Assembly (NCBI GenBank): GCA_902588745.1 | Contig: CACIQI010000005.1 | Location: forward strand, 14,070 to 78,069 | DNA: 64,000 nt | Origin: an uncultured Alphaproteobacteria bacterium | Lineage (GTDB): Bacteria; Pseudomonadota; Alphaproteobacteria; HIMB59; GCA-002718135 | Reading direction: 5' to 3' | Shown: one piece after another, positions 18,961 to 59,464 of the stretch | Numbering within the stretch: position 1 is the stretch's first letter | Layout of the letters: every line of letters begins with the position of its first letter | Notes under the pieces: generated by a model | Seen by the model: only the letters and a program-made list of their open reading frames with translations | Database searches by the model: none | What the model was told of the DNA's origin: nothing | Translations under genes and position numbers: made by a program

Positions 18961-20024
18961 TACTTCATACCTGTACTTGCTATTCCTGTTGTTATAAATT
19001 TTTGTAAGTAAGCAAATATAATTGCTATAGGTAATAAAGTTACCATAGTCATTGATAATACATAATTCCACTGACTAGTAAGTTCTCCGTGAAATGCGTT
19101 TAATCCAATTTGCAATGTATAAACTTCACTTTTTGATAAAACTATTAAAGGCCATAAGAAATCATTCCACCTCCACATTATGGAAAAAATTGCTAAAACT
19201 GCAATCGCAGGTATAGATAAAGGTAGGACAACTCGCCAATAAATTGCCCATTCACTTGCGTGATCCATTCTTGCTGCTTCTATAAGCTCTCTAGGCAATG
19301 TAAGCATATATTGACGAAGTAAAAAAACTCCTGTTGGTGTTGCAGCACCTGGAAGAATTACGCCCCATAATGAATTTATCATTCCAAAGTTTGCAACAAC
19401 ATAAAAAACTGGTACCAAAATTATCGTTAATGGAATTAATAATGTACCTATAACAAAAACAAGTGCAAAATTTTTCCCTCTAAACTCATATATAGAAAGT
19501 GCATATGCTGCCATTGAATTTATTATTAACGTTATTATTGTTGCTACAACAGTAATGAAAGTTGAGTTTTTGAAATAAAGTAAGAAATCATACTTTCTTA
19601 AAGGATCAACATAGTTTTGCCACTGAATTTTAAATTCTCTAATTTTTTCTCTTTTATCAATGGGTACTTTTACTGTTTCTCCTGGGTTTAGAGGATCAAC
19701 CATTTTAGCATTAATTCCAATTCTTTTAATTTGTGCTAACTGCTTTACTGACCCATCTTCTTGTGTCACATTAAAAATTGGTAAGGGTTTATCGTATCCT
19801 TCAACATCAACTTGAATTTGAGAAAGTGGCAAAATTGTTGGAGGATATTCTTGTATACCTGCTAATGTCTTTAATGAAGATAATCCTAACCACACAACAG
19901 GACCAAACATTAAAAGAACACCTAAAAATAAATAAAAATAAGAAAAATAATCTGTCCAATGATATTTATTTTTATATCTTTTTTTTGTAGCAATTTTTAT
20001 TATTCTTGAAGTTGTTTCAGACAT
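18960..20024 (-). CDS. CUT1 sugar ABC permease (MalG-like) with an enlarged periplasmic loop of about 100 aa
   Basis: 354 aa with the EAA-type loop REL.EAARMDHAS.W.I...V.LP. Confidence 0.85.
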   Translation of the reverse strand: MSETTSRIIKIATKKRYKNKYHWTDYFSYFYLFLGVLLMFGPVVWLGLSSLKTLAGIQEYPPTILPLSQIQVDVEGYDKPLPIFNVTQEDGSVKQLAQIKRIGINAKMVDPLNPGETVKVPIDKREKIREFKIQWQNYVDPLRKYDFLLYFKNSTFITVVATIITLIINSMAAYALSIYEFRGKNFALVFVIGTLLIPLTIILVPVFYVVANFGMINSLWGVILPGAATPTGVFLLRQYMLTLPRELIEAARMDHASEWAIYWRVVLPLSIPAIAVLAIFSIMWRWNDFLWPLIVLSKSEVYTLQIGLNAFHGELTSQWNYVLSMTMVTLLPIAIIFAYLQKFITTGIASTGMK

Positions 20025-20025
20025 A

Positions 20026-32985: not shown

Positions 32986-33967
32986 TTTGACCACACTTAA
33001 TTCCACATTGATCAACCCAGTGACCTGGTTCAACTTCAATTAATTTCATTTCTATTTTACCATCTTTTCCTTCTGGATTATGATGGGGGCATCTAGTTCT
33101 AAATACACACCCAGTTGGTCTATCTAATGGACTTGGAATATTTCCAGGTATTGGAGATAACGGTGCGTCTAAGTTATTTATATCAGGTAAAGCTTGTAAT
33201 AGCCCTTTTGTATAAGGATGTTTTGGATTTTTAAGGATCTCATTTACTGGACCTTTCTCCACTACACTTCCCAAATACATAACCGCTACATGATCAGCTA
33301 CCTGAGCAATAACACCTAGATCGTGAGTAATAAATATTACTCCCATTTGATATTCTTTAATAATATCTTTAATTAGATTAATTACTTGAGCTTGAATTGT
33401 TACGTCTAAAGCAGTTGTTGGCTCATCTGCTAATAAAAGTTTAGGCATTGTTGATAGTGCCATAGCTATCATTGCTCTTTGACGCATTCCCCCAGATAAT
33501 TCAAATGCATATTGATTAAACCGTTTTTCTGCATCTGCTATGCCTACTCTTTTTAGCATGTTTATGGATATTGATTTTGCTTCCTCTTTATTAATATTTT
33601 TATGAATTAGTAATTGCTCAACCATTTGTGCGCCAATTTTTATTGCTGGAGCAAAACTTGCCATAGGCTCTTGAAAAATCATTGATACTTTACCACCTCT
33701 TATTTTTTTTAAGTCTTGCTTAGAGGTAAATTGAAGAACATTTTCGTTGTCTAAAATTATTTCTGCATCTTCATTATAAGAAGTATTACCTGGATTTAAT
33801 TTCATAATCGATTTAGCAGTCACAGATTTACCTGATCCGGATTCACCAACTATACCAAGTACTTCACCTTGATCTACAGAAAGAGAGATATTTTCAACTG
33901 CAGTAATTCTACCTTCGTCAGTATCAAATTTTACATCTAAATTTTTTACTTCTAATAAATGACTCAT
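32978..33967 (-). CDS. Opp/Dpp-type ABC transporter ATP-binding protein (OppD/DppD-like) with a Cys-rich C-terminal tail
   Basis: 329 aa with GESGSGKSV, LSGGMRQR and the tail CVFRTRCP...GHWVDQCGIKC. Confidence 0.88.
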   Translation of the reverse strand: MSHLLEVKNLDVKFDTDEGRITAVENISLSVDQGEVLGIVGESGSGKSVTAKSIMKLNPGNTSYNEDAEIILDNENVLQFTSKQDLKKIRGGKVSMIFQEPMASFAPAIKIGAQMVEQLLIHKNINKEEAKSISINMLKRVGIADAEKRFNQYAFELSGGMRQRAMIAMALSTMPKLLLADEPTTALDVTIQAQVINLIKDIIKEYQMGVIFITHDLGVIAQVADHVAVMYLGSVVEKGPVNEILKNPKHPYTKGLLQALPDINNLDAPLSPIPGNIPSPLDRPTGCVFRTRCPHHNPEGKDGKIEMKLIEVEPGHWVDQCGIKCGQNG

Positions 33968-33968
33968 A

Positions 33969-45374: not shown

Positions 45375-46142
45375 TTATTTAGCTGTCCATCCTCCATCAA
45401 TTACTAGTGATGAACCAGTCATCATTGAAGCAGCATCTGAAGCAAGATACACTACAGCACTAGCAATATCACTTTCTGTTGCTACTTTTCCTAAAGGTAT
45501 GTTTTCAATTACAGATTTTTTAAAACTTTTATCTTTAAAAAATTTTTTGACCATTGGGGTTTCCACAAATGTAGGGCAAACGGAATTAACTCTGATGTTG
45601 TGCTTAGCCAAATCAATAGCCATCCCTTTGGTAAGACCTTCAACACCAAACTTAGTCATATTATAAACACTTCTAAGAGGAGCGCCTACTTTACCTAACT
45701 GAGAAGAAATATTTATTATTGATCCACCAATTTTTTTTCTATTTTTTGATTTAAGCATAACTTTTGTAGCTAATTGAGCAATATCGAATGATGCTTTAAT
45801 ATTAAGATCAACCACTTCACTCATATCTTTTCTTTTAATTTTGGTGAAATATTCAGGTCTATTTGTACCAGCATTATTTACTAATATGTCTAATTTATTA
45901 ATTTCTAAAAATATTTTTTTTATTTCTTTTAAATTAGTTACATCACACACATAATAACTACATTTCTTTTTGAGTTTTTTAATTTTGTTTTGAACAATTA
46001 AAAGATCTTTCTCTGTACGACTAAGAATTATTACATTTGCGCCTGCTTCTGCTAATGCTATAGCACATGCTTTACCTATGCCTTTGCCTGACCCTGTCAC
46101 AAGAGCAGTCTTATTTTTTACATTAAAATTTTTTAGAAACAT
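45375..46142 (-). CDS. short-chain dehydrogenase/reductase (SDR, FabG/gluconate-5-dehydrogenase-like)
   Basis: 255 aa with TGSGKGIG, NNAG and YNMTK. Confidence 0.88.
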   Translation of the reverse strand: MFLKNFNVKNKTALVTGSGKGIGKACAIALAEAGANVIILSRTEKDLLIVQNKIKKLKKKCSYYVCDVTNLKEIKKIFLEINKLDILVNNAGTNRPEYFTKIKRKDMSEVVDLNIKASFDIAQLATKVMLKSKNRKKIGGSIINISSQLGKVGAPLRSVYNMTKFGVEGLTKGMAIDLAKHNIRVNSVCPTFVETPMVKKFFKDKSFKKSVIENIPLGKVATESDIASAVVYLASDAASMMTGSSLVIDGGWTAK

Positions 46143-46155
46143 TTGATCTGATTAT

Positions 46156-46815
46156 TTACAATGAAAAAATAGATTGATCTAATAAATTCATTTTTTTAAT
46201 ACACATTTGAAAACTATCTTCTAAATGGTAATCGCCTGGAAACCCAATGCATTTAATTCCAGCGTTTACGGCAGAATTACTACTTTCTTCAGTATCCTCT
46301 ATTGCAATACAATCTTCTGGCTGTAAATTTAATTTATCTAATGTAACTTTATAAATTTCTGGATGTGGTTTTTCATTTTTAACAAATGATTTATTACCAA
46401 TGAATTCAAATTCTTCTTTTGAAATTTGACCAGAAAGACTTTCAAATACTGCATCGACATTATTTAAAGTTGTAGAAGTTGAGAAAGCAAGTTTAATATT
46501 ATTATCTTTTGTATACTTAATTATTTCATCAACGCTCTTTCTTAATTTTTGTTTATTCTGAATAATGAACGAGCTAAAGATTTCTGTTTTTCTATTTCTA
46601 ATTTGTGAAGCATTTACATTAACATTATTTTTTTCAGCAAAATCTTCTACCCTTTTTGTCCCTCCAGATTTTTTTAACAAAATTTTATAGTCTTGCTCAT
46701 CCCAATACCAATCAAGTCCAGCTTCTTTAAAAGCTTCATTAAATGAGTTACGTTGAATGTTAGAAGATTCAATTAGTGTCCCGATAGATCCAAATAAAAG
46801 TGCTTTATATTTCAT
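46156..46815 (-). CDS. HAD-IA-like (CbbY/beta-phosphoglucomutase-like) protein with degenerate motif I
   Basis: 219 aa. Motifs II-IV are recognisable (FSTST, EKPHPEIY, IEDTEESSNSAVNAG), but motif I reads LLFGSIGTL instead of F-D-x-D-G-T-L. Confidence 0.75.
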   Translation of the reverse strand: MKYKALLFGSIGTLIESSNIQRNSFNEAFKEAGLDWYWDEQDYKILLKKSGGTKRVEDFAEKNNVNVNASQIRNRKTEIFSSFIIQNKQKLRKSVDEIIKYTKDNNIKLAFSTSTTLNNVDAVFESLSGQISKEEFEFIGNKSFVKNEKPHPEIYKVTLDKLNLQPEDCIAIEDTEESSNSAVNAGIKCIGFPGDYHLEDSFQMCIKKMNLLDQSIFSL

Positions 46816-46834
46816 AAGATTAGAAATTTTATTA

Positions 46835-47716
46835 TTAACCTTTTACTGCTCCAGCAGTTAAACCACTTATTAATTGTCTTTGGAAAAACATGATTATCAT
46901 AAAAAGTGGTGCAGTTGCTGAAACAACACTTGAGACTGCCCACATATAATTTCCACTATGTTCAATTGTGCCCAAATAAGCATTAATTTTAGGAACCATA
47001 GTATAATTCTGCTGATTTAAAAGAAGTGAAGTAACTGTAAAATCATTATAGGCTAACATCATACTGAATAACCCTGCTGTAACAACTCCAGGCCACATAA
47101 CAGGCATTATAACAAAGCGAAACGCTTGAAAATATGAACAGCCATCAATTAGCGCACTTTCATCTAACTCTTTAGGAACTGTTTTAAAGAAGGAATAAAG
47201 TAACCATAATGTAAAGGGTTGATTGATTGCAACTAAAACAATTATGGTAGTTGGAAGTATGCCCCAAACGTTCAATTGGAAGAAAGGAAATAGATAACCA
47301 GAAACTAATGTAATGTGTGGCATCGCTCTAAAAATCAATGCAGCTATTAAGATCCAAAAAGTATATTTATATGTCGATCTAGACAAGGCATAAGCACCTA
47401 ATGTTCCTAAAAATAAAGAGATTGTAACAACTGAAACAGTAATAATAATTGTATTCATTGTTGCTTTCCAAAATTCACCTTCAGTCCAAGACTCTACATA
47501 TGCCTTAACTGTAGAAGTATCTCCTGTTTCTATCAAAGTATTAACTCCTGTGACTGCAAACATCCAATCAGCTCTTGAGAAAAAGTCGGCTTTTACTTTA
47601 AATGATCCCCAAAAAGTCCATATAAAAGGAAACACGGAAATAATTAACCAAGCAAGAATAAAAAAACTATTTATTAAAATTAGTTGTTTTGAGTATCTGT
47701 TAATTTTTGATTCCAT
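46835..47716 (-). CDS. CUT1 sugar ABC permease (MalG-like)
   Basis: 293 aa with the EAA loop LDESALIDGCSYFQAFRFVIMP. Confidence 0.85.
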   Translation of the reverse strand: MESKINRYSKQLILINSFFILAWLIISVFPFIWTFWGSFKVKADFFSRADWMFAVTGVNTLIETGDTSTVKAYVESWTEGEFWKATMNTIIITVSVVTISLFLGTLGAYALSRSTYKYTFWILIAALIFRAMPHITLVSGYLFPFFQLNVWGILPTTIIVLVAINQPFTLWLLYSFFKTVPKELDESALIDGCSYFQAFRFVIMPVMWPGVVTAGLFSMMLAYNDFTVTSLLLNQQNYTMVPKINAYLGTIEHSGNYMWAVSSVVSATAPLFMIIMFFQRQLISGLTAGAVKG

Positions 47717-47717
47717 A

Positions 47718-48746
47718 TTATCTTTCCGTTCTAAATTCTCTCCATGTTCTTATAAGTACTGGTGTTAATAGAATTGCTACACCAATAATAGTTAACATAG
47801 ATGTTGCTCCTGCAGATCCAAATAACATTTTGTTTTCACTTCTTAAGTCATTATAAATCATCCAAGAAAGTGATTGAGCAACTCCTTCAGCAGCGAACCC
47901 GATTATTGGCTCAAGAACCCTAAAATTATCCATTAGACAAATTAATATAATAAATGTTGCTACCGGATAAAGATGTGGAATAACAATGTGTCTGACTCGT
48001 TCATATCTTGAGGCGCCATCTATGATCGCTGCTTCAATTGGATCTTGAGGAACAGTTTGTAATGCAGCATAAAAGACAACAAAAGCAAATGGTGTATTGT
48101 GCCAAATCCCATAAATAATCAGAGTAATCCAAGTCAATTGACTTGAGGACTTTAGTGATAGGTTTGGATCATCAAATAAGAATTGAATAAATGAACCTAA
48201 TATTCCCTTAGCATCTATCATCCAAAATAAAACGAGAGATCCAATCAATGGTGTTACAATCATAGGCAGTATAACACCAAAAATGGTTGGGCCTTTTAAA
48301 CTTTTTGTAATTGTATTTACACTTAAAGCAACGATGAAACCTAAAACTACAACTGGTGGTGTAACGGCAAAACAAAATGTAAGTGTAAATAAAAGTGCTT
48401 TGTAAAAAGGTAAATTTAGTAAGATATCCGTAAACTCAGCTATGGATGAGGAATTAGTCCAAGCCTCTTTAATTTCATCAAAAGCTAAATGATTTCTATC
48501 GCCGTATGTTCCTAAACCATTAAATCTTCCAAGAGGCTGTTCCTCTTGTAATTTTGTAGTGGCCTCAATATCTACTTTAGTTTCAGTTTTACATCCAAAT
48601 GGATCGCATTTTTCTACTTCCATTAAAATTTGTTCAGGTTCAATATGTAGAGATTGAAAAAAACTAGAAATAATTGGAAGTCCAATAAATAATAGCATTG
48701 CCAATCCACTTGGAAAGAAGAACCAAAAAAATGTTCTGTGGGGCAT
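47718..48746 (-). CDS. CUT1 sugar ABC permease (MalF-like)
   Basis: 342 aa with the EAA loop IEAAIIDGASRYERVRHIVIPHL. Confidence 0.85.
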   Translation of the reverse strand: MPHRTFFWFFFPSGLAMLLFIGLPIISSFFQSLHIEPEQILMEVEKCDPFGCKTETKVDIEATTKLQEEQPLGRFNGLGTYGDRNHLAFDEIKEAWTNSSSIAEFTDILLNLPFYKALLFTLTFCFAVTPPVVVLGFIVALSVNTITKSLKGPTIFGVILPMIVTPLIGSLVLFWMIDAKGILGSFIQFLFDDPNLSLKSSSQLTWITLIIYGIWHNTPFAFVVFYAALQTVPQDPIEAAIIDGASRYERVRHIVIPHLYPVATFIILICLMDNFRVLEPIIGFAAEGVAQSLSWMIYNDLRSENKMLFGSAGATSMLTIIGVAILLTPVLIRTWREFRTER

Positions 48747-48766
48747 CTATTTCTTACTAAAAAAAA

Positions 48767-48790
48767 AGTGGAACATAATAATGTTCCACT
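48767..48790 (-). terminator. hairpin plus T8 tract between the binding-protein gene and the first permease gene
   Basis: The minus strand reads AGTGGAACAT-TATT-ATGTTCCACT (10-bp stem) followed by TTTTTTTT, 12 nt before the permease ATG (48746). Confidence 0.7.
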
Positions 48791-48812
48791 TTATCATAAA
48801 TATTTATACGGT

Positions 48813-50048
48813 TTATAGAAATCCTTGCTCAGTAGCTTTTGCTACATAAGCAGCTTCTACATCCGCTAATGCTTTTTCAGCAGACTCATTTCCTTGAAGG
48901 AATTCAACAAGTTCTGTACTCAAAGCACCATGTAATAGACTCATGTATGGTAAGCTTGGGTAAGGTGTTGCACCTCTATTAGCAGCGTCAACAACTGGCC
49001 CTGCTGTATCTCCAGGCGAATAACCATCAATCAACCAAATTGTTGCATTTGGATTAGCATTTGCCATTTCTGTTGAAGTTGCTGCACCTAAAAGAGCTCT
49101 AAAAGATGCTTCTGCATTTTCATCAGAAGTGTTTGTTGCAATTCCAAATCCATCCCACCATAGAGTTGTTGCTGGTTTACTTCCACCACCTACAGATGGA
49201 GAAGGAGCTAATCTAGTATCAGCTTTAATTGCTTGATCACCTTCGTCATCTAACAATGAAGCTGCACCTGAGTTCCAGATATGCATTAATGCTACATTAC
49301 CAGACTCCCATTCTTCTTTAACTGCATTTGTATCTTGAGTTAAGAAATCAGGGTTACTTACTTCGGTTAATCTTTTAAGCATATTAAGAGCAGCTACACC
49401 TTTAGCGTTATTTACACTAACTTCAGCTGTTCCAGCTTTAAAGAAATCACCTCCATGACCTAGGTACATGTTTACAAACTCTTGACCTAAGTTCCATCCA
49501 GATTTGAAAGCACCAGCATATGGGTTAGCCATTTTACCAGAAGCTTTAATTTTTTCTGCAGCCGCAATTACCTCTTCATATGTTGAAGGAACTGCGATAC
49601 CTAAATCATTAAGAATACTTTCTCTGTACCAAAGATGTTGAGCATTAGCCATAAATGCTACTGCATAAATTTTACCATCAATCACGATTTTTTGATTGTC
49701 TTGTAATGCACTTCCGTATTTAGCAACTAAATCATCAAGTGGACGAATTAAGTTATCATTCATTAAAGTTGTAATTGAACCATTAGTAACAAGTTTAGCA
49801 GAGAATTCAGCTGGGTTAGCTGAAAGTGCTGCAACTTGTAATTTATTATGATCAACAGAATGTGTTACAGAAAAATCTGCATCAGGTCCTGCACAACTTT
49901 TTACTTCATCCATGAAAATTCTGTATGTTGTAAATTCGTTTGCTAGAATCTTTATTGATCCATCTGTTACTCCACAAGGTGAGTGCCCACCGGCATATGC
50001 ACTTGTGCTAACAAATGTGAACAATAGAGCTATTAATAGTTTTTTCAT
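48813..50048 (-). CDS. extracellular solute-binding protein family 1 (CUT1)
   Basis: 411 aa. Signal peptide ...FVSTSAYA followed by GGHSPC. Operon-first position. Confidence 0.85.
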   Translation of the reverse strand: MKKLLIALLFTFVSTSAYAGGHSPCGVTDGSIKILANEFTTYRIFMDEVKSCAGPDADFSVTHSVDHNKLQVAALSANPAEFSAKLVTNGSITTLMNDNLIRPLDDLVAKYGSALQDNQKIVIDGKIYAVAFMANAQHLWYRESILNDLGIAVPSTYEEVIAAAEKIKASGKMANPYAGAFKSGWNLGQEFVNMYLGHGGDFFKAGTAEVSVNNAKGVAALNMLKRLTEVSNPDFLTQDTNAVKEEWESGNVALMHIWNSGAASLLDDEGDQAIKADTRLAPSPSVGGGSKPATTLWWDGFGIATNTSDENAEASFRALLGAATSTEMANANPNATIWLIDGYSPGDTAGPVVDAANRGATPYPSLPYMSLLHGALSTELVEFLQGNESAEKALADVEAAYVAKATEQGFL

Positions 50049-50070
50049 ATATTTCCCCTTATTAATAAAG

Positions 50071-50083
50071 TGTGAAATTCACA
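50071..50083. promoter_or_regulatory. LacI/GalR-like palindrome TGTGAA-A-TTCACA upstream of the binding-protein gene
   Basis: Perfect 6-bp arms, 23-35 nt upstream of the binding-protein ATG (50048). Half-sites resemble GalR/CcpA-type TGTGAA half-sites. Confidence 0.4.
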
Positions 50084-50131
50084 TTTAAGTATAAATCCTT
50101 TATATTGGTATTAGAAAATAATGCAATAATA

Positions 50132-50157
50132 TGAATTGATATTCAAGATTTTGAATA
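50132..50157. promoter_or_regulatory. array of TGAAT/ATTCA half-sites including TATTCA-N6-TGAATA, 20 nt upstream of the LacI gene
   Basis: TGAAT 50132-50136, TATTCA 50140-50145 and TGAATA 50152-50157. The same motif recurs at 52787-52804 and 56989-57006. Confidence 0.5.
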
Positions 50158-50177
50158 TTGAAATGGGGGGATAATTC

Positions 50178-51176
50178 ATGAGTTTTAAAAAGACTGCGAC
50201 ATCACAGGACGTAGCAAAACTAGCAGGAGTATCCCAATCAGCTGTTTCTAGATGTTTTACAAAAGGTGCTAGCATTTCTAGTAGAACAAAATTGAGAGTC
50301 TTGGAAGCAGCTAGGAAATTAAAATATAAAGCACCTAATATATCTTCTAATTCAATATCTAATGACGATAGCGGATTAGTTGCTGTCATTTTACCTTACG
50401 TTACAAGCAGATATTATCCAGAAGTTTTAATAGAGTTACATGAAGCACTTAGGAATGGGGGGTTTAGAATTTTATTAATTACAACTGATGATGGAGAGGA
50501 ATTAGATGAAAAATTAATACAGCCATACTTAAAAGAAAAACTTATTGCAATAATATCAGCCACAAAACCTACTGAAAAATTTGTTGAAGACTGCAATCAA
50601 AAAAGAATACAGTTTATTGCCTATAATAGAAGTTGGAATATACCAACGATAAGTTCCGTTGCATGTGATCATCGTAACGGAGGAGAAATAGTTGCAGAAT
50701 ATTTTACAAATAAAAATCATAAAAATATTGGTCTCATTGAAGGGCCAAAAGGATCTTTTGTTAGCGATGAGCGATGCAAAGGTTTTAAAAATTATCTTAA
50801 AAATAATAAAAAAATTAAATTAAATATTGAAAAAGGTTTTTTTACTTATGAAGGTGGATATCAAGCAACTGAAAAAATTTATAATAAAAACATAAGTGCA
50901 ATATTTTGCGCTGACGACACAATGGCATTTGGTTGTTTAGATTATATTAAAAAAAATACTTCGTTAAAAACACCTTCTCAATTAGAAATTATTGGTTATG
51001 ACGATATATCTATGTCAGCTTGGGAATCATATAACCTAACAACTGTCAGACAGCCTATTAGACAAATGTCAAAACTAGCAACTCAATTAATAAATGAATT
51101 TATTAAGGATCCAGATTTTGAACCTATAAATCATATTGTACAGGGAAGACTTATAAAAAGAAAAACTACAAAATAA
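50178..51176 (+). CDS. LacI family transcriptional regulator
   Basis: 332 aa. N-terminal HTH ATSQDVAKLAGVSQSAVSRCF plus a periplasmic-binding-fold effector domain. Confidence 0.9.
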   Translation: MSFKKTATSQDVAKLAGVSQSAVSRCFTKGASISSRTKLRVLEAARKLKYKAPNISSNSISNDDSGLVAVILPYVTSRYYPEVLIELHEALRNGGFRILLITTDDGEELDEKLIQPYLKEKLIAIISATKPTEKFVEDCNQKRIQFIAYNRSWNIPTISSVACDHRNGGEIVAEYFTNKNHKNIGLIEGPKGSFVSDERCKGFKNYLKNNKKIKLNIEKGFFTYEGGYQATEKIYNKNISAIFCADDTMAFGCLDYIKKNTSLKTPSQLEIIGYDDISMSAWESYNLTTVRQPIRQMSKLATQLINEFIKDPDFEPINHIVQGRLIKRKTTK

Positions 51177-51177
51177 T

Positions 51178-51597
51178 TTATTTAAATTTTAATCCCATCT
51201 GTTCAAAAACACCATGATTATCTACCATAACGTAATTATCTAAAAACTTTCCATCTTTAATGGTCCAAAAATCTGAAAATTGCATTTTGATAGATTTGCC
51301 TGTTGGCTCTACTCCAAGATATGTTCCACTATGTGTACCTGTTAGAAATCCCGTTGCACTAATCCACTCACCTTCAGCAACCACAATATCATTTTTTACA
51401 TGATAATCTGGAAATGCTTCATAAAAAGGTTTTAGAACTTTATATTTAAAATTTTCTATACCATGGATATCACCAAAACCTGGAGGACCATGCCAGACCA
51501 TATTATCATGCCAGTACTTGTGTTGTGCTTCTAGATCTTGAGCATTAAGTGCATCATACATATCAGCTAATAATTTTTTACTTTCATCTAAAGTCAT
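51178..51597 (-). CDS. single-domain NTF2/SnoaL-like protein (predicted ester cyclase type)
   Basis: 139 aa. YWHDNMVWHGPPGFGDIHG...TGTHSG.YLG..PTGK......DFW.I.DGK pattern typical of SnoaL-like ester cyclases. Confidence 0.75.
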   Translation of the reverse strand: MTLDESKKLLADMYDALNAQDLEAQHKYWHDNMVWHGPPGFGDIHGIENFKYKVLKPFYEAFPDYHVKNDIVVAEGEWISATGFLTGTHSGTYLGVEPTGKSIKMQFSDFWTIKDGKFLDNYVMVDNHGVFEQMGLKFK

Positions 51598-52733
51598 TTT
51601 TTATCTCCTAAAATTTGCATTAGAATTGCAAGCTCATTAAAACCAGTCCACTCTTTAATAATTTTATTATTTTTAATTTCCCATTGTGTGATTCCCCACA
51701 AATACACTTCTCTATTAGTTGGTTGGCCATATGAGCCATTCCCTTTATGCGTTCCTACTGCGCCCCAACGAACCGATACTAAATAGCCGTCTTTTGTATT
51801 TCCCATCCAGTATAAATCTTCAATACTAAGTGCAAGATCAGGAAATGAAGCTAAAATTGAAATTATAAATTTTCTTAATTGCAAAACTCCTTTAAATTTA
51901 CGACCAGTTGAACCTTCAAATTCTACCTTACTAGAGTATGCTTTATTTATTGCAGAAAAGTTTCGTCTATTCCAAATTGTATCATAAACTGCATGAACAA
52001 ACTCTCTTACATTTGTAATTTTATCTGGAATATCAAAACTAATTGGTTTTAATTTAGTAATATTTCTTGTTGGCTTAGAGTTTTTAAAGTGAGGAGCATA
52101 GGGCCCTGAAATTCCATCATCAACAAGTTGCTTGGCAACTTGATTTAAATCTAATCCGAGTTGTTTAATTAAACCTGCTGTATCGTAGACAACATTTTCG
52201 TAATAAATTTCATTATTTTTTGCTACACAATTTGCAATACAAAATAATCTTACTTTTTTACCAGTTGGTTTAGAAAATTTGCTAAATCCTGTATTTGTTC
52301 CGGTAATAATTGTTCTATGCGAAGTATGAAAACTTGCGTTTTCATTTCCTGCCCAAATAACTTCATCTGCAAATAATCGAATATCTGGAAAGGCGTTGTT
52401 TGTGTGTACAGTATCAGCTACTATTTTTTCAGATCCAGATTGTAAACCAAATTCATCCCAAACTCTGCAATCTTTACTGTAGGTATCATAGATGTAGCCA
52501 ATATTTTTTTCTTCCCAGATTTGATATGTAATCCTTACAATATAATCAATTATATTTTTATACTGATCCTCAAACCCCTTCATTGATTGATGTTTAAGTT
52601 TTTTTGGTTTTGGATTTAATGACTTAGCAGTTCCTCCACCACCGTATGCTTTTAATGAAATATCATAACTCTTAGGCATATGATGATCTTGAAGGGCTTC
52701 TGGTCTTTTATCTATAATTTTTTTAAATTTCAT
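51594..52733 (-). CDS. two-domain NTF2/SnoaL-like protein, type I (paralog of 54978-55970)
   Basis: 379 aa with two tandem SnoaL-like halves (ITYQIWEEKNIGYIYD...VIWAGN...TGKKV and VYDTIWNRRNF...VRWGAVGTHKGNGSYGQPTNREV). Confidence 0.65.
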   Translation of the reverse strand: MKFKKIIDKRPEALQDHHMPKSYDISLKAYGGGGTAKSLNPKPKKLKHQSMKGFEDQYKNIIDYIVRITYQIWEEKNIGYIYDTYSKDCRVWDEFGLQSGSEKIVADTVHTNNAFPDIRLFADEVIWAGNENASFHTSHRTIITGTNTGFSKFSKPTGKKVRLFCIANCVAKNNEIYYENVVYDTAGLIKQLGLDLNQVAKQLVDDGISGPYAPHFKNSKPTRNITKLKPISFDIPDKITNVREFVHAVYDTIWNRRNFSAINKAYSSKVEFEGSTGRKFKGVLQLRKFIISILASFPDLALSIEDLYWMGNTKDGYLVSVRWGAVGTHKGNGSYGQPTNREVYLWGITQWEIKNNKIIKEWTGFNELAILMQILGDKK

Positions 52734-52766
52734 AATTTGTATTTGTAATGAGATACATTTAAAAAT

Positions 52767-52804
52767 ATTTCAAAGCAATGAAATTTTATTCAAAAAAATG
52801 AATA
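52767..52804. promoter_or_regulatory. tandem inverted repeats ATTTCA-N6-TGAAAT and TATTCA-N6-TGAATA, starts 20 bp apart
   Basis: Read directly: 52767-52784 and 52787-52804, centred in the 107-bp divergent spacer between the two SnoaL-like genes. Confidence 0.5.
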
Positions 52805-52840
52805 TTGTCTTTTTTAGTTTATTAATATAATCAAAATGGA

Positions 52841-53845
52841 ATGACTGATCTCCAAGCAGAAAAAAAATTAGTATTAGATTATTTCAATGAAATAGATAGT
52901 TGCAACATTGATTCATTATCTGAAGTTATATCCAAATACGCATCAGAAGAATTTAGTATGAAATGTACCCACCCATTCAACGAACTAGGTAGTATAGATC
53001 TTGTTGCTAATAATCTTTGGAAACCAATTAAAGATTCATTTTCACCTATACAACGTCGATTAGATATATTTTATGCTGGGATAAATTCATTAGATAAAAA
53101 TAAAGGTAAATGGATCTCCAGTATGGGTCATTTCATGGGTGTTTTCAATAAACCGTTTGTAGGCCTTAAACCAAATTATAAATCTACTTTATTAAGATTT
53201 GCTGAATTTTATAAAGTGGAGAATAATAAAATTACTGAAGGAGTAATTTTTTTAGATGTAATGAATTTAATGCAGCAACTAGGTCTTTCTATAATTCCTG
53301 AATCTACAGGTCTCGTTTGTGTAACACCAGGACCAATGAATCATAAAGGTTTAAAATTTGATATTTCTAATGAAAGTGAAAGTCAAAAAACATTGGATTT
53401 AATTCATAGAATGCGCGATCGACTTGTTAAAGGATCCAAAATGCAATCTTATAAAGAAGAATTAGAATTAGATTGGCATAATGACATGATTTGGTGGGGA
53501 CCAGGAGGTATAGGGGCTTCATATACTATTGATGGTTATCAAAAAGGTCATACAAAACCATTTCAAGATGGTTTAGAATTTGTTCGTTTCAATGGACACA
53601 TACTTAGTAGCTCTGAAGATGATCTCGGAGGTTGGTTTGGTTGGCCAAATTTAATTATGAAACCTAAAGGAGAATATTTAGGATTAACAAATGCAAGTGA
53701 TATTGAATCAGAAATGAGAGTTGTAGATTTATATCGAAGAGATGGAGATAAACTAGCTGAAAACTGGATCTTTATTGATCATTTACATTTTTTAAAAAAA
53801 CTAGGAGTGGATCTTTTAGAAAGAGCAAAATTTTTAAATCAGTAA
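52841..53845 (+). CDS. two-domain NTF2/SnoaL-like protein, type II (paralog of 57045-58142)
   Basis: 334 aa. The C-terminal half WHNDMIWWGPGGIGASYTIDGY resembles the single-domain protein 51178-51597. The N-terminal half is a more divergent NTF2-like domain. Confidence 0.6.
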   Translation: MTDLQAEKKLVLDYFNEIDSCNIDSLSEVISKYASEEFSMKCTHPFNELGSIDLVANNLWKPIKDSFSPIQRRLDIFYAGINSLDKNKGKWISSMGHFMGVFNKPFVGLKPNYKSTLLRFAEFYKVENNKITEGVIFLDVMNLMQQLGLSIIPESTGLVCVTPGPMNHKGLKFDISNESESQKTLDLIHRMRDRLVKGSKMQSYKEELELDWHNDMIWWGPGGIGASYTIDGYQKGHTKPFQDGLEFVRFNGHILSSSEDDLGGWFGWPNLIMKPKGEYLGLTNASDIESEMRVVDLYRRDGDKLAENWIFIDHLHFLKKLGVDLLERAKFLNQ

Positions 53846-54973
53846 TTAGATAACTTTTGAGGCAAGTTTAGTACCCTCAACTAATGCATGAAGCTTTTCA
53901 TAACAAATTTTTTCATCAATTTTTCCAAAACCAGCAAATGTACTAAAACCACAATCTGTCCCTGCCATCAATTGATCTTTTGGAATGACTGTAGAAAACT
54001 GAATTAATCTATCTGCAACAACTTCTGGATGCTCAACAAAATTAGAGGTTGAGTCGATTACTCCAGGTACTAAGACTTTATCTTTTGGTAACTTTATATC
54101 TTGAAAAACTTTCCATTCATGTGCGTGCCTAGGATTAGAAGATTCAATGAGAAAGTATTTTACCTTTGATTTCAAAATTATAGGTAATATTTTCTCTAGA
54201 GCAATATCGTGTGTGTGGGGTCCTTCATAATTGCCCCAACATATATGCATTCTAGTTTGCTCAACATCTACATTAGATAATGCTAAGTTTAGACATTCAA
54301 TTTGTAGTTCTGCACGTTTTATAAACTCATCTTCAGATAAATTTTTAAAATTCATATGTCTTGCTAAAGCAAGGTCTGGGCAATCTAATTGAACTTGGAT
54401 ATCTGATTTTGTTATTAGCTCATATTCTTTGGCCATAATATTAGATAATTTATCCAAATATTCATCTTCGGTACTATAAAATTTATTTGGCATAAAAACA
54501 TTTATGACGCCAGGTGATGCTGAGTTCATAAATGCATGTCGGTGATTAAGTTTATCAAGTGAATTTTTAAAATTATTTATATCCTGTAGAAGAGAAGTTT
54601 CATCTTTTACTTTTAATTCGTTTGTACAACATGGTCTGGTATAAGTTGGAGTGCCACCACTTTTAGCAATCTTTTCTTTGTATTCTGGAAAATCATCAAG
54701 ATCAGCAGGTGCTCTTCTTTCGCTTTCACCTGAGAACCCATCAATTCTGTCTTTAATATATGTAGCGTAGCTAATTTTACTCATCTCCCCATCACTGACA
54801 AAATCAATTCCAACATCAAGTTGGCTCTTAACAACACTTTCCACGTTATTTTTTAATACTTCATCAAAACTACTTTGACTAAATTTCTCTCCTTTATCTT
54901 TTGCAAATAGAAATTCTGAAAGTTCTTTTGATCTAGGAAGGCTTCCAACATGTGTTGTTAAAATATTAGACAT
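53846..54973 (-). CDS. core-only cobalamin-independent methionine synthase-like protein (MetE C-terminal domain family)
   Basis: 375 aa with TTHVGSLPRS, DGEMSK, HICWGN and GTDCGF blocks. Confidence 0.75.
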   Translation of the reverse strand: MSNILTTHVGSLPRSKELSEFLFAKDKGEKFSQSSFDEVLKNNVESVVKSQLDVGIDFVSDGEMSKISYATYIKDRIDGFSGESERRAPADLDDFPEYKEKIAKSGGTPTYTRPCCTNELKVKDETSLLQDINNFKNSLDKLNHRHAFMNSASPGVINVFMPNKFYSTEDEYLDKLSNIMAKEYELITKSDIQVQLDCPDLALARHMNFKNLSEDEFIKRAELQIECLNLALSNVDVEQTRMHICWGNYEGPHTHDIALEKILPIILKSKVKYFLIESSNPRHAHEWKVFQDIKLPKDKVLVPGVIDSTSNFVEHPEVVADRLIQFSTVIPKDQLMAGTDCGFSTFAGFGKIDEKICYEKLHALVEGTKLASKVI

Positions 54974-54977
54974 TAAA

Positions 54978-55970
54978 TTAACCTGTTTTTAATAAAATCT
55001 GTTTCCAGATCATAGTTTCATCATAGAGAACCCATTCATTTTTAATACCTCTTTCTCCAAATTCAACATGATTAATACCCATTATATAAATTTTCGAATT
55101 AGAGGCTTTCCCAAAAAGACCATCTCCTTCATGTTTACCTACCATAGACCATCGAACTGAAGCTTTTTTAGGTTCATATTTTTCTTCTGTAAAAGCAATG
55201 TGCTCAACTGAGAACAATGCGTTAGGAAAAGCATCTCTTAATTGTTTCCAAAATTTTATTACCTCATCTCTACCATAGTGAGTATTTCCCCCTGGTTGAA
55301 ATTGCTGTATGGCTCTGTCATAACTATCATTTATTGTTTTCTCTAAATTGATGTTCATAATAGAGGTTAAGATATTTGCATATAATTCTCCAATGTTACC
55401 AGATGCTAAAATAGGAGATTTATAAATTGATTTAACAGGTGTATTTTCATCAAAGGGTTTACTAGCTTTTTCAGGACCACCCTCATCTTTAACAAGATTA
55501 CTTGCAAATTTCTTGGGGTCAATTCCAATTTGTCTCACAATTGCTCCTTGATCTCTCACAAGCCACTCATCATAAACTTGATTATTCATGCATGCACAAT
55601 CAGCGATAGTTCGGTAATATAGTTTTTTTCCTGTTGCTTTCCCATACATCCCATCAACAGAATGAGTAGAGGTTGATAAAATGCGATGCGACGAAAAATA
55701 TCCCTCATCATCATTTCCTGTCCAAATTACATCTTCACCTAAAAGTGTTCTATCGGGAAATAGTTTTTTACTAGCATAGGTACTTTCAATTACTGGGTCT
55801 GCACCATAAATTACTCCAGATGGAGATCTTGTAGGTGTGGGGAGGCTTACATTTGGAGTATCAGCATAATAATCTCTTATTGCTTCAACATCGTTTTTTT
55901 CCCAAATTTGATATGTAATCTTTAAAATATAATCAGGAAAATCTTTGAATTGTGAATCAAATCCTTTCAT
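54978..55970 (-). CDS. two-domain NTF2/SnoaL-like protein, type I (paralog of 51594-52733)
   Basis: 330 aa. FKDFPDYILKITYQIWEKNDV...VIWTGNDDEGYFSSHR...ATGKKL and VRWSMVGKHEGDGLFGKASNSKI parallel the paralog. Confidence 0.65.
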   Translation of the reverse strand: MKGFDSQFKDFPDYILKITYQIWEKNDVEAIRDYYADTPNVSLPTPTRSPSGVIYGADPVIESTYASKKLFPDRTLLGEDVIWTGNDDEGYFSSHRILSTSTHSVDGMYGKATGKKLYYRTIADCACMNNQVYDEWLVRDQGAIVRQIGIDPKKFASNLVKDEGGPEKASKPFDENTPVKSIYKSPILASGNIGELYANILTSIMNINLEKTINDSYDRAIQQFQPGGNTHYGRDEVIKFWKQLRDAFPNALFSVEHIAFTEEKYEPKKASVRWSMVGKHEGDGLFGKASNSKIYIMGINHVEFGERGIKNEWVLYDETMIWKQILLKTG

Positions 55971-55981
55971 ATAATTAATAT

Positions 55982-56953
55982 TTAATTAGTTTGTCGTATT
56001 ATAAATAAATTACCATCATGATTACTTATCTGTCTTATTGAACGAAGTGAATTTTTTGGAACAGAAAAAGTATCTTTTTCTTTAATTACAACTTTGTCTC
56101 CATCACAATCTATTTCCCATTCACCAGATAAACAATGATACACTTCTGATTTCTCCAGTTTGTATTCATGTATATGAGCACTCTTGCCGTTGAGAAGTGA
56201 AAGGCTAAAACCTGTTTCATGCGGTATATTTGGAGTAAAAGATTTATCATGAATTTGAAACTGATCAATGTAGTTGATAATTTTATTAGATTGATAGTGA
56301 TCATCATCGACAAAATATTTATCTTTATCATTAAATCGAATAACAAACTTTTCTATGTCTTCTGAAGAGTAATGATCGAAACTCTCTAATTCATTATCTT
56401 CTAATGGCTGAATAATTTTAGTTTCATCTGTTACTTTCTGTTTCTCTGTGTCTATTAAAGAATTATCATTCATTAATACCATGCCAGATTCTTTTGCATC
56501 TTTTAAAAGTTTAGGTGTCCAAGTAATAACACCTGGATCATTTTCACCTAACACAACAAACATTAAAGCTTCTTCATCACTTACATTTTGAAAACCTCTG
56601 AACATGTTTGTGGGAAAAGAAGCGATATCACCTTTTTTTAGTATTACTTCTCCTTCTGTGCCATCAACACCCCAATAAAAACGCCAGGCACCTGAGTGAA
56701 TTATAAAAACTTCTGCTGTTGTGTGACTATGTAATCCAGAGCCATTCATCGGCGCAGCACTGACAGCACCAATATTAAAGCCATGTTCTTCAGCTATTTT
56801 AACATTTTGTTTAGCATCTTCACTTACACCAGGTCCTATAACTGAATAATTTTTCCTATCTTGATGACCTTTTAGTTTTCCCTCAACAAAAGGTATATTA
56901 CTAGGAATAAGTTCATCGAATTTAGCTAATCTAGATGTAATATTAATTGACAT
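55982..56953 (-). CDS. bicupin protein (two cupin domains, both with HxH...E metal-ligand pattern)
   Basis: 323 aa. Cupin 1 is GSGLHSHTTAEVFIIHSG and cupin 2 is GKSAHIHEYKLEKSEVYHCLSG. Confidence 0.7.
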   Translation of the reverse strand: MSINITSRLAKFDELIPSNIPFVEGKLKGHQDRKNYSVIGPGVSEDAKQNVKIAEEHGFNIGAVSAAPMNGSGLHSHTTAEVFIIHSGAWRFYWGVDGTEGEVILKKGDIASFPTNMFRGFQNVSDEEALMFVVLGENDPGVITWTPKLLKDAKESGMVLMNDNSLIDTEKQKVTDETKIIQPLEDNELESFDHYSSEDIEKFVIRFNDKDKYFVDDDHYQSNKIINYIDQFQIHDKSFTPNIPHETGFSLSLLNGKSAHIHEYKLEKSEVYHCLSGEWEIDCDGDKVVIKEKDTFSVPKNSLRSIRQISNHDGNLFIIRQTN

Positions 56954-56968
56954 ATTTTAATGATCTTT

Positions 56969-57006
56969 TATTCATTTTTTTTGAATATTATTCAAAATAA
57001 TGAATA
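56969..57006. promoter_or_regulatory. tandem inverted repeats TATTCA-N7-TGAATA and TATTCA-N6-TGAATA, starts 20 bp apart
   Basis: Read directly: 56969-56987 and 56989-57006, in the 91-bp divergent spacer between the bicupin gene and the type II SnoaL-like gene. Confidence 0.5.
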
Positions 57007-57044
57007 AATCAATTATTATTTAACAATAGTGTTATTAAATTATT

Positions 57045-58142
57045 ATGGCAAATAAAATACAAAACTTTGATACAGGTGAGAAAGATAACTCAAACATAAT
57101 TCATTTAGATCTTGATCCAAAGATAAATATTGAAAACAAAATATATTTTAAAAATTTATTAAAAAAAATTGTCGAGTGCTCTTTAGATAATTTAGAAGAA
57201 AATCTTGAAAATTTATATCACGTAGATGCTGAGTTTAATGGATTTCATCCAATTAATGAAATTAAAGGAATTGAAGAAATAAAAAATAAATTTTTAATAC
57301 CTCTAAAGAAGGCATTCCCCGATCTCGAAAGAAGAAATAATCTAGTTATTGGAGGAGCATTTAGAGATAAAGTTTTTGTTTCATTTATTAGTCATTTAAC
57401 TGGAACTTTTAAAAATGAGTGGTTAGGCGTAAAGCCGACTAACAAAACAATTTATCTTAGAACATGTGAAGCACATCAGATTACAAATAATAAAATAATA
57501 AAATCCTATACATTAATTGATACTGTAGATTTTATCCGTCAGGCTGGATATTGGCCTATAAATAAATCTCTTGGGGTAGAAGGGATGTGGCCTAGTCCAA
57601 TCACAGGTGATGGAGAAAATAATCAAAATTTAGATAAGGAACTGTCTCTTCAATCTTTGAATCAAGATTTAACCATGCAAAGAAGTTTAAATATTAAACC
57701 TGAGACTGAGCCAGGTCTATCAAAAGATCAAATAAGGGAGAAATTAATTAATCATCCTCAACAAGATTATTGGCACCCAAAAATGATGTGGTATGGGCCA
57801 AGTGGTATAGGTACAGCTAGAGGTTTAGATGGTTTTGTTGATCATCATCAGCTCCCATTTAGACTTACATTCAAGGAAAGAGATTATTGGAAAATCGGTC
57901 ATTATATTGAAATTGGAGATGGAAATTATTCTATGACTGGTGGTTGGCATAGTATTCAGTGTGTTCATGGATCAAGTGATTGGTTAGGATATGAACCTAC
58001 TCAAAAAAAAATAACAATGAGAGTTATGGATTTTTATTTACATCATGAAGGGTTAATTAGAGAAAATTGGGTACCGATCGATATAGCACACATATTAGAT
58101 CAAATAGGCATTGATATCTTTAAATTAATTCATAAAAAATAA
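57045..58142 (+). CDS. two-domain NTF2/SnoaL-like protein, type II (paralog of 52841-53845)
   Basis: 365 aa. WHPKMMWYGPSGIGTARGLDGF and the C-terminal ...ENWVPIDIAHILDQIGIDI parallel the paralog (...ENWIFIDHLHFLKKLGVDL). Confidence 0.6.
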   Translation: MANKIQNFDTGEKDNSNIIHLDLDPKINIENKIYFKNLLKKIVECSLDNLEENLENLYHVDAEFNGFHPINEIKGIEEIKNKFLIPLKKAFPDLERRNNLVIGGAFRDKVFVSFISHLTGTFKNEWLGVKPTNKTIYLRTCEAHQITNNKIIKSYTLIDTVDFIRQAGYWPINKSLGVEGMWPSPITGDGENNQNLDKELSLQSLNQDLTMQRSLNIKPETEPGLSKDQIREKLINHPQQDYWHPKMMWYGPSGIGTARGLDGFVDHHQLPFRLTFKERDYWKIGHYIEIGDGNYSMTGGWHSIQCVHGSSDWLGYEPTQKKITMRVMDFYLHHEGLIRENWVPIDIAHILDQIGIDIFKLIHKK

Positions 58143-58144
58143 TT

Positions 58145-59464
58145 ATGGCAATAGAATATTTAAAAAAAGGTTTAGACGAAAAACAAAGAATTGAAGATAA
58201 TGATAAAGTAAAAAAAATTGTTGAGGAAACGTTAAGTAAAATTGAATCAGAAGGCGATAAACATATTAGAGAGTTATCTCAAAAATTTGATAACTATTCT
58301 CCAGATAGTTTTAGATTAAGTGAAGATCAAATTAATCAATTAATGAGTGAAGTCTCTGATGATGACAAAGAAGATATTAAATTTGCTCAAAAACAAGTGC
58401 GATCATTCGCGGAAGCACAACTTAAAACTTTAAGTGAATTAGAAGTAGAAACGCATCCAGGTGTGATTCTTGGTCATAAAAATATACCAGTACAAGCAGT
58501 AGGATGTTATGTACCTGCCGGAAAATTCCCAATGGTAGCTTCTGCTCATATGTCAGTTGTTACTGCCTCTGTTGCTGGGGTTCCAAGAATTGTTGCTACC
58601 ACCCCACCATTTAAAGGTAAGCCAAATCCAGCTGTCGTTACAGCAATGAAAATGGGTGGTGCTCACGAAATTTATGTTTTGGGAGGAATGCAAGGAGTTG
58701 GTGCTATGGCTATTGGTACAGAAACTATTAAACCTGTAGATATGCTTGTTGGACCTGGCAATGCATTTGTTGCTGAAGCGAAAAGACAATTGTATGGCAA
58801 AGTTGGTATCGATTTATTTGCTGGTCCAACTGAAACAATGGTAATTGCAGATGAAACTGTTGATGGTGAAATATGTGCAACAGACTTATTAGGACAAGCT
58901 GAACATGGATATAATTCTCCTGCTGTGATGATAACAAACTCAAGAAAACTTGCAGAAGAAACATTTAAAGAAATTGATAGAATTTTAGAAATTTTACCCA
59001 CTAAAGAAACAGCAAGTACAAGCTGGAGAGATTATGGAGAAATAATTTTATGTGATACTTATGAGGAGATGTTATCTAAAGCAAATGAAATAGCTTCAGA
59101 GCACGTTCAAGTTATGACAAAAAAAGATGATTGGTTTTTAGAAAATATGACATCTTATGGAGCTCTATTTTTGGGCGCTAGAACTAATGTTGCTAATGGT
59201 GATAAAGTCATAGGCACTAACCATACTCTTCCTACTAAAAAAGCTGGAAGATATACTGGTGGTTTGTGGGTTGGTAAGTTCATTAAAACCCATACTTATC
59301 AAAAGATTATGACAGATGAAGCTGCAACTCTCATCGGAGAATATGGATCTAGACTTTCACATTTAGAAGGTTTTATAGGTCATGCAGAACAATGTAATGT
59401 GAGAGTAAGACGATATGGGAAAAAAAATGTTGGATATGGAAAACCAGCAGGAGAAAAAATTTAG
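58145..59464 (+). CDS. histidinol dehydrogenase family NAD-dependent 4-electron alcohol dehydrogenase (HisD paralog; sulfopropanediol 3-dehydrogenase HpsN-like candidate)
   Basis: 439 aa with a LLGQAEHG block, a GPGNAFV block and a C-terminal H..E region of the HisD family. No other his genes are adjacent. Confidence 0.85.
   Translation: MAIEYLKKGLDEKQRIEDNDKVKKIVEETLSKIESEGDKHIRELSQKFDNYSPDSFRLSEDQINQLMSEVSDDDKEDIKFAQKQVRSFAEAQLKTLSELEVETHPGVILGHKNIPVQAVGCYVPAGKFPMVASAHMSVVTASVAGVPRIVATTPPFKGKPNPAVVTAMKMGGAHEIYVLGGMQGVGAMAIGTETIKPVDMLVGPGNAFVAEAKRQLYGKVGIDLFAGPTETMVIADETVDGEICATDLLGQAEHGYNSPAVMITNSRKLAEETFKEIDRILEILPTKETASTSWRDYGEIILCDTYEEMLSKANEIASEHVQVMTKKDDWFLENMTSYGALFLGARTNVANGDKVIGTNHTLPTKKAGRYTGGLWVGKFIKTHTYQKIMTDEAATLIGEYGSRLSHLEGFIGHAEQCNVRVRRYGKKNVGYGKPAGEKI

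Follow-up and report, generated by a model that had tools for sequence, protein, structure and literature searches.

The stretch of DNA analysed here, hereafter the window, comprises 64 kb of contig CACIQI010000005.1 (positions 14,070 to 78,069 of the forward strand; 30% GC), and belongs to Pelagibacteraceae (SAR11), the sequences closest to it being GORG single-cell genomes and contigs with that family label. It carries a 14-kb gene cluster (45375-59464) encoding a LacI-family regulator, an ATP-binding cassette (ABC) transporter, five SnoaL-like proteins, a bicupin, a MetE-like protein and a HisD-family dehydrogenase, which three divergent spacers divide into six transcription units (Table 1). 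Our subject is an element common to these spacers. In each of them, four pentameric half-sites of alternating orientation make up a 36-bp array, which follows the pattern WT[T/G]CA-N6(7)-TGAAW-N4(3)-AT[T/G]CA-N6-TG[A/C]AT and whose half-sites are numbered hs1 to hs4 below.

Table 1. Transcription units, selected genes and half-site arrays of the cluster (window coordinates)
Feature	Coordinates	Strand	Content or position
Leftward unit from array 1	45375..50048	-	ABC substrate-binding protein, two permeases, haloacid dehalogenase (HAD) hydrolase, short-chain dehydrogenase/reductase (SDR)
CUT1-type ABC substrate-binding protein	48813-50048	-	
Two ABC permeases	47718-48746, 46835-47716	-	
HAD hydrolase	46156-46815	-	
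SDR	45375-46142	-	
LacI-family regulator, 332 aa	50178..51176	+	proposed cognate repressor
Leftward unit from array 2	51178..52733	-	379-aa double-SnoaL protein, 139-aa SnoaL protein
Rightward unit from array 2	52841..53845	+	334-aa SnoaL-like protein
Leftward unit from array 3	53846..56953	-	bicupin, 330-aa double-SnoaL protein, MetE-like protein
Bicupin	55982-56953	-	
330-aa double-SnoaL protein	54978-55970	-	
MetE-catalytic-domain-like protein	53846-54973	-	
Rightward unit from array 3	57045..59464	+	365-aa double-SnoaL protein, then HisD-family dehydrogenase
Array 1	50121..50156		ATGCA 50121-25, N6, TGAAT 50132-36, N4, ATTCA 50141-45, N6, TGAAT 50152-56; divergent spacer of the putative ABC substrate-binding-protein operon (-) and lacI (+)
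Array 2	52768..52803		TTTCA 52768-72, N6, TGAAA 52779-83, N4, ATTCA 52788-92, N6, TGAAT 52799-803; divergent spacer of the 379-aa double-SnoaL gene (-) and the 334-aa SnoaL gene (+)
Array 3	56970..57005		ATTCA 56970-74, N7, TGAAT 56982-86, N3, ATTCA 56990-94, N6, TGAAT 57001-05; divergent spacer of the bicupin operon (-) and the 365-aa SnoaL/HpsN-like operon (+)

A preliminary description of this DNA had reported TATTCA-N6-TGAATA repeats, set in pairs about 20 bp apart, in the three spacers. On re-reading, all of its motif coordinates were correct: the exact motif occurs at 50140-50157, 52787-52804 and 56989-57006 (three matches in all in the window), accompanied by ATTTCA-N6-TGAAAT at 52767-52784, TATTCA-N7-TGAATA at 56969-56987 and a lone TGAAT at 50132-50136. 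Upstream of lacI only one and a half sites had been listed; these are genuine, but a weaker half-site, ATGCA, precedes the lone TGAAT by six bases, so that the same four-half-site architecture is present in all three spacers. The outer 'everted' pairs (hs1 + hs2 and hs3 + hs4) are the two 18-mers, and an inverted TGAAT-N4(3)-ATTCA pair lies between them with its dyad 10 bp from either outer dyad. The half-site centres are 11, 9 and 11 bp apart, so that the four half-sites share one helix face. The outer dyads are separated by 20, 20 and 19.5 bp in arrays 1-3, a spacing kept in all orthologues, and the proposed phasing on one helix face thus stands. Both half-site orientations are present and conserved, with a flexibility of 1 bp (N6/N7, N4/N3). 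Within spacers of 91-129 bp the arrays take up 36 bp, and the distance between array centres and the six start codons is 35-91 bp; the centre of array 1 lies ~39 bp before the lacI ATG and ~91 bp before the start of the substrate-binding-protein gene.

The arrays are far from what chance would produce. Dinucleotide shuffles of the window gave 0.02 exact TATTCA-N6-TGAATA matches on average and none of 100 shuffles reached the three observed; with an AT-matched background and non-coding segments only, a background check of the kind called for in the preliminary description, the expectation fell to 0.002-0.003. The degenerate four-half-site pattern matched the window only at 50121, 52768 and 56970 and was not met in any of 2000 shuffles. 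When two mismatches to TATTCA-N6-TGAATA were allowed, 25 matches were found against 16 expected, with no clear enrichment elsewhere in the window, so the signal is confined to the three cluster spacers; as had been noted before for the divergent ones, the motif was not found in any other spacer of the window. The central element alone (TGAAW-N4-WTTCA, a CcpA-like reading) was not enriched (4 matches, 2.3 expected), and it gains meaning only because operators of related regulators, described below, match it. A repeated mobile element was excluded because the three arrays have only the half-sites in common and not the intervening sequence. Rfam and tRNA scans of the window were both empty.

Conservation was studied by scanning species-representative genomes with the regulator, which gave 25 orthologous Pelagibacteraceae (SAR11) loci with LacI proteins 69-98% identical to that of the window; the regulon was checked across the window itself and across ~20 kb surrounding every orthologue. 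The arrays are kept in every orthologous locus that reaches the spacers. Across the 25 loci the half-sites are either invariant or switch only between TGAAT and TGCAT (ATTCA and ATGCA), in contrast to drifting N6/N4 spacers and flanks. Column entropy in spacer 1 was 0.14 bit for half-sites, 0.77 for internal spacers and 0.98 for flanks (22 unique spacers), and in spacer 3 the corresponding values were 0.03, 0.36 and 0.66 bit (18 unique sequences); permutation gave p<5e-5 in both cases. Spacer 2 orthologues are too alike for a strong footprint (p=0.06). The outer half-sites are conserved as strongly as the inner ones. The N7/N3 spacing of array 3 is the same in every orthologue, and the N6 between hs3 and hs4 is the sole spacing without any variation, the central spacing being N4 or N3. 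Within this scope the results support the original proposal of a local regulon, in which a shared cis-element, here seen to be conserved, ties LacI gene and SnoaL units together.

Gene content around the arrays is modular. When loci L014-L024 are compared with 46835-53845 of the window, the SnoaL genes Sno139/Sno379/Sno334 and their own array are present or absent as a unit; in L014-L022 array 2 is missing together with the whole module and arrays 1 and 3 stay. Among L014-L024, moreover, the ABC transporter is swapped for a paralogous type with a binding protein 40-48% identical, and lacI and arrays 1 and 3 remain.

A metagenome scan with TGAAW-N3-4-ATTCA-N6-TGAAT returned at least 120 unrelated contigs (soil, gut and other sources) and for this reason says nothing on the size of the regulon; cluster genes were on none of the contigs among the matches listed. 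Two metagenome contigs with a GC content of 0.37-0.40, L082 (2922-2957) and L141 (10469-10504), carry ATTCA-N6-TGAAT-N4-ATTCA-N6-TGAAT, i.e. the same layout in an unrelated organism. No LacI-type helix-turn-helix (HTH) protein is encoded near these arrays on either contig, and their layout probably reflects chance or a different system.

The regulator encoded next to array 1 contains the LacI-type HTH domain PF00356 (E 9e-11) and Peripla_BP_1/3/4 domains according to Pfam. It aligns full-length to models of the dimeric RbsR, CcpA and PurR proteins, scores 189 bits with an RbsR-type model and 129 bits with the CytR model, and has no C-terminal tetramerisation extension, as seen from its length and its end-to-end alignment with dimeric family members. 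A LacI-type HTH, an effector domain resembling periplasmic binding proteins and a gene adjoining the targets are what defines a local regulator of this family, and all three are found here. The recognition helix, LAGVSQSAVSR, is invariant in the regulator and its orthologues. The hinge region (residues 51-66) is not: the window protein has YKAPNISSNSISNDDSG here and does not follow the conserved hinge-helix signature Y-x-P-N-x-x-A-R-x-L. Among 118 orthologues the hinge is the most variable region, with an entropy of 1.79 bit compared to 0.70 in the core and 0.22 in the HTH. An AlphaFold2 model shows no helix in residues 49-66, but with a mean predicted local distance difference test (pLDDT) score of 63, i.e. 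at low confidence.

The same scan, through the shared peptide LAGVSQSAV, picked up 55 distant relatives of the regulator (33-38% identity) from Sphingomonadales, Pseudomonas, Rhodobacterales, SAR324, Woeseiaceae and others. All 55 have the identical recognition helix and keep a textbook hinge helix, YxPNAIARSLITRRSN. Their loci represent the same gene cluster, with HpsN-like (60-75% identity), MetE-like (~50%), SnoaL-like, bicupin, SDR and ABC genes. Upstream of their regulator genes, TGCAT-N4-ATGCA is the commonest of the palindromic dyads, and the broader TG[C/A]AT-N3-4-AT[G/T]CA occurs 60 times in ~960 kb of these loci, where 4 matches would be expected. Forty of the 60 sites lie at most 400 bp upstream of a cluster-gene homologue and none inside one. 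Altogether, 53 unique sites are distributed over 35 of the 55 loci; 48 have N4 spacing, with a central CG in 41 of them, and 5 have N3. From these sites we define the subfamily operator motif tTG[C/A]AT-NCGN-AT[G/T]CAa. A second motif in the relatives, ACGTC-N4-GACGT, was rejected, as it is coding sequence of a conserved TSYDV peptide.

These operators point to the regulator as the probable binder of the SAR11 arrays. When sites were anchored on one perfect half, the partner half-site showed T at -7, G at -6 (104/107), C/A at -5, A/C at -4 and T at -3; TGAAT fits this profile, and TGAAT/ATTCA are already present as minority variants in the relatives (14/106 half-sites). Proteins with the same helix thus share the same half-site, TG[C/A][A/C]T with an invariant G in the relatives and TGAAT or TGCAT in SAR11. 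The central pair (50132-45 and 52779-92, and in its N3 version 56982-94) has the form of a palindromic operator of inverted half-sites with TG/CA at about -7/-6 and +6/+7 and, judged by its sequence, is a direct descendant of the subfamily operator. This has two consequences for the preliminary description. The cognate factor, which had been called uncertain, can now be named with high probability, since the half-site TG[A/C]AT is that of relatives with an identical recognition helix. The TATTCA-N6-TGAATA repeats are real, but they do not represent the canonical register of the family, which is the central TGAAT-N4(3)-ATTCA.

Three traits set SAR11 apart from the relatives: its operators have lost the central CG, its hinge helix is degenerate as well as hypervariable, and two extra half-sites have been added outward at N6. 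None of the 53 unique SAR11 arrays has a central CG, their centres being TGAT, TAAT, AATT, TTTT or ATT. The missing CG had already been pointed out, and it turns out to coincide with the degenerate hinge helix. An AT-rich relative (37% GC) with a normal hinge has kept the CG (TGCAAACGTATGCA), hence its loss in SAR11 is not merely AT bias. In the hinge, PNAIARSLITRRSN of the relatives corresponds to PNISSNSISNDDSG of the SAR11 proteins; the Ala-Arg-x-Leu signature and the basic residues are lost, Ser, Asn and acidic residues are abundant, and insertions and deletions occur. In LacI and PurR structures it is the hinge helix that recognises the central CpG from the minor groove and sets how the two headpieces are oriented to each other, so the loss of the hinge and the loss of the CG are mutually consistent. 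Half-sites flanking at N6 were not found in any of 120 flanks of the relatives' sites.

As the relatives share recognition helix, gene cluster and half-site with the SAR11 system, the adjacent LacI-family protein is the obvious binder, and we consider it highly probable that it binds the arrays and represses the cluster. We conclude that the operator system is real and conserved and that its architecture is unusual for the known family to which it belongs. The explanation that fits best as a whole, and which we hold to be somewhat better than an even bet, is that the arrays are composite 36-bp operators for the cluster's own LacI-family repressor, with two dimers on four half-sites. In the mechanism we propose, the HTH of the repressor would read the half-site 5'-TG[A/C]A[T/A]-3', which is oriented <- N6 -> N4 <- N6 -> in the arrays, and without inducer two dimers (four headpieces) would sit side by side on all four half-sites. 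Pairing of hs1 with hs2 and of hs3 with hs4, i.e. of the everted 18-mers, would be the only sterically sensible one. The rigid hinge helix would be replaced by a flexible 16-residue linker of Ser, Asn and acidic residues, which makes it plausible that a headpiece docks in the reversed as well as in the usual orientation. Since 36-bp arrays lie in 91-129-bp spacers with centres 35-91 bp from the start codons, bound repressor should occlude both divergent promoters of each spacer, including that of lacI itself (autoregulation), and six units would be repressed. An imported substrate or a pathway intermediate would bind the periplasmic-binding-protein-like domain and release the repressor.

Whether all four half-sites are used by two dimers is a finely balanced matter, tipped by the evidence slightly towards yes. 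Since conservation is as strong in the outer half-sites as in the inner ones, the outer ones must be read by something, most simply by the same headpiece, and with four half-sites four headpieces, hence two dimers, are required. Alternatively, one dimer of the same regulator could bind the central inverted pair in canonical LacI geometry. The outer half-sites would then be accessories that increase occupancy as overlapping alternative registers, act as kinetic traps or belong to the promoters. This geometry is exactly that of TGCAT-NCGN-ATGCA in the relatives, with G at -6, N3 variants matching array 3 occur there too (5/53 sites), and in spacer 1 the inner half-sites are the most consensus-like. 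However, equal conservation of the four half-sites, seen in all three spacers and all orthologues, has no explanation with one dimer; the inner-left half-site of array 2 (TGAAA) is weaker than its outer-right one, and it is the hs3-hs4 spacing that never varies and the central one that does (N4/N3). Furthermore, the relatives certainly use the central pair and do so without flanking half-sites, so that the SAR11 additions need a reason. We therefore regard binding by a single dimer as unlikely, though well worth keeping in mind. That the arrays are bound by another protein, for example a global regulator or nucleoid protein, is very improbable. In its favour is the absence of the central CG, which is found in 1173 of 1303 catalogued motifs of LacI-family transcription factors (Ravcheev et al. 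2014, PMC4052901), a feature that is typical of but not obligatory for the family. Against it, the half-site is that of relatives sharing the recognition helix, the arrays always accompany this lacI gene, with one directly upstream of it, the cluster contains no other regulator gene, and elsewhere in the window there are no such arrays.

The possibility that the half-sites are only promoter elements or chance AT-rich palindromes without a dedicated regulator had been raised in the preliminary description as a potential refutation (divergent -35-like boxes). Several half-sites are indeed preceded by T, which gives TTGAAT and a 4/6 match to TTGACA, and every spacer must hold two promoters. Four copies with fixed N6/N4/N6 spacing and alternating orientation, however, cannot all be -35 boxes; they are exactly conserved beside drifting neighbouring bases, their chance expectation is 0.002, their half-site is identical to that in operators of GC-rich relatives, and promoter-consensus matches in the spacers do not exceed those in shuffles. 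The refutation therefore fails, and we give this reading hardly any credence. Several points weigh against the composite operator with two dimers. The family and the closest relatives with the same helix use the central inverted pair and not everted N6 pairs, and two dimers require reversed headpieces, for which CytR is the only direct precedent. As scans of the three AT-rich spacers found no more promoter-consensus matches than shuffled sequence, and as a search for sequencing runs turned up metagenomes and a single tiny metatranscriptome only, promoter positions, and with them the overlap of arrays and promoters, are deduced from array position only. The link between hinge loss and array gain depends on one evolutionary transition, the absence of the hinge helix from the AlphaFold2 model is weak evidence because the pLDDT is too low to settle whether the hinge is disordered, and the local character of the regulon applies to the 64-kb window and ~20 kb around each orthologue.

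Compared to a canonical LacI/GalR local repressor (PMC4052901), the SAR11 system has the adjacent gene for an HTH protein with a periplasmic-binding-protein-like sensor, inverted half-sites with TG at -7/-6, sites 35-91 bp upstream of starts including one before its own gene, and a local catabolic regulon with an ABC transporter; autoregulation applies to 72% of the family members (PMC4052901). It differs in that the arrays lack the central CG, the hinge signature PN.xARSL is lost and hypervariable, and each spacer contains four half-sites instead of one palindrome. With the operators of the same subfamily in other Proteobacteria it shares the helix, the gene set, the half-site TG[C/A]AT and the central N4 (occasionally N3), whereas the relatives have single palindromes of 14-16 bp, a central CG in 41/48 N4 sites, a canonical hinge and no flanking half-site in 120 flanks. 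Obligatory double operators 21-22 bp apart are known for RafR of Enterobacteriales and ScrR of Burkholderiales (PMC4052901). Here as there, every regulated promoter contains two dyads separated by about two helical turns, an arrangement that would imply cooperative binding by a pair of dimers. In RafR and ScrR each site is a full canonical palindrome, whereas in SAR11 the 20-bp-phased dyads are everted repeats, and their inner half-sites also form the central canonical palindrome.

CytR of E. coli, a LacI-family protein, binds pentamer or octamer half-sites (TGCAA/TTGCA) at variable spacing in inverted or direct orientation and acts by anti-activation, for which CRP has to be bound on both sides (PMC3454398). 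The SAR11 half-site variants TGCAA and TGCAT resemble that of CytR, and the SAR11 hinge is non-canonical. Unlike in CytR, the SAR11 spacings are fixed, and by sequence the SAR11 protein is not closest to CytR (189 bits with the RbsR-type and 129 with the CytR model). A fuller picture can be offered tentatively, as one possibility and a rather doubtful one: a SAR11 LacI repressor that has shed the lock between hinge helix and CpG would bind an everted plus inverted array as two dimers with freely oriented headpieces, in a mode known otherwise from CytR alone, though here without CRP (no search for CRP sites or crp was made), and would control a widespread catabolic island that possibly processes an algal sulfonate or polyol.

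The cluster genes provide some indications of the substrate. Closest among solved structures to the HisD-family dehydrogenase (58145-59464) are sulfopropanediol 3-dehydrogenases (HpsN; 358-403 bits for 8V35/8WWE, with 403 bits for 8V35), as compared to 260 bits for the best true histidinol dehydrogenase (HisD) and less for others. By this similarity, the cluster may oxidise a primary alcohol resembling 2,3-dihydroxypropanesulfonate (DHPS), and the combination of an HpsN-like dehydrogenase with a sugar-type ABC transporter hints at an alcohol or sulfonate substrate, e.g. a DHPS-like compound. The genes for binding protein, permeases, HAD hydrolase and SDR presumably form one operon, as judged by the short gaps between them. 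When loci L026-L080 (e.g. L037, L042, L074 and L075) were compared with 45375-59464 of the window, the whole set (HpsN-like, MetE-like, bicupin, SnoaL-like, SDR, CUT1 ABC and LacI genes) was found clustered across Alpha-, Beta- and Gammaproteobacteria and SAR324, and this conserved gene set looks like a widespread pathway. Two long 'non-coding' segments elsewhere in the window (19072-20025 and 33040-33968), which arose from crude gene calling, are ordinary overlapping ABC-transporter genes.

Two further sequences in the spacers were recorded. Directly after the last half-site of array 3, the octamer AAATCAAT (57006-57013) is invariant in 18 of 18 distinct orthologous spacers, even where the remaining flank has diverged. 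Its minus strand gives TTGATT, 16-17 nt upstream of TAATAT, and may represent the -35 box of the bicupin operon promoter; the operator would then be located between -35 and the transcript start. In spacer 1, outside the array and 23 bp upstream of the codon at which the ABC binding protein starts, there is a perfect 13-bp palindrome, TGTGA-AAT-TCACA, at 50071-50083. In the equivalent place L012 has GTGCA-AAA-TGCAC, a different sequence with the same 5-bp arm and 3-nt centre, and the palindrome is absent from loci with the other transporter type. It looks more like a small hairpin in the 5' untranslated region with compensatory changes than like a protein site.

Genomes of SAR11, the most abundant bacterium of the ocean, contain, to our knowledge, very few transcription factors, almost none of them with a defined operator, and our literature search found no published description of this regulon, of the motif or of a SAR11 LacI operator. 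The analysis offers for SAR11 a concrete, putative pair of regulator and operator together with a regulon of six units. It also defines an operator motif, TG[C/A]AT-NCGN-AT[G/T]CA, for the LacI subfamily that accompanies the HpsN-like/SnoaL/cupin cluster in many Proteobacteria; as these regulators go along with the same cluster, identification of the inducer would reveal which substrate this widespread marine pathway of catabolism uses. The loss of the hinge helix, paired with a changed operator architecture, would constitute a natural experiment on the evolution of DNA recognition in the LacI family.

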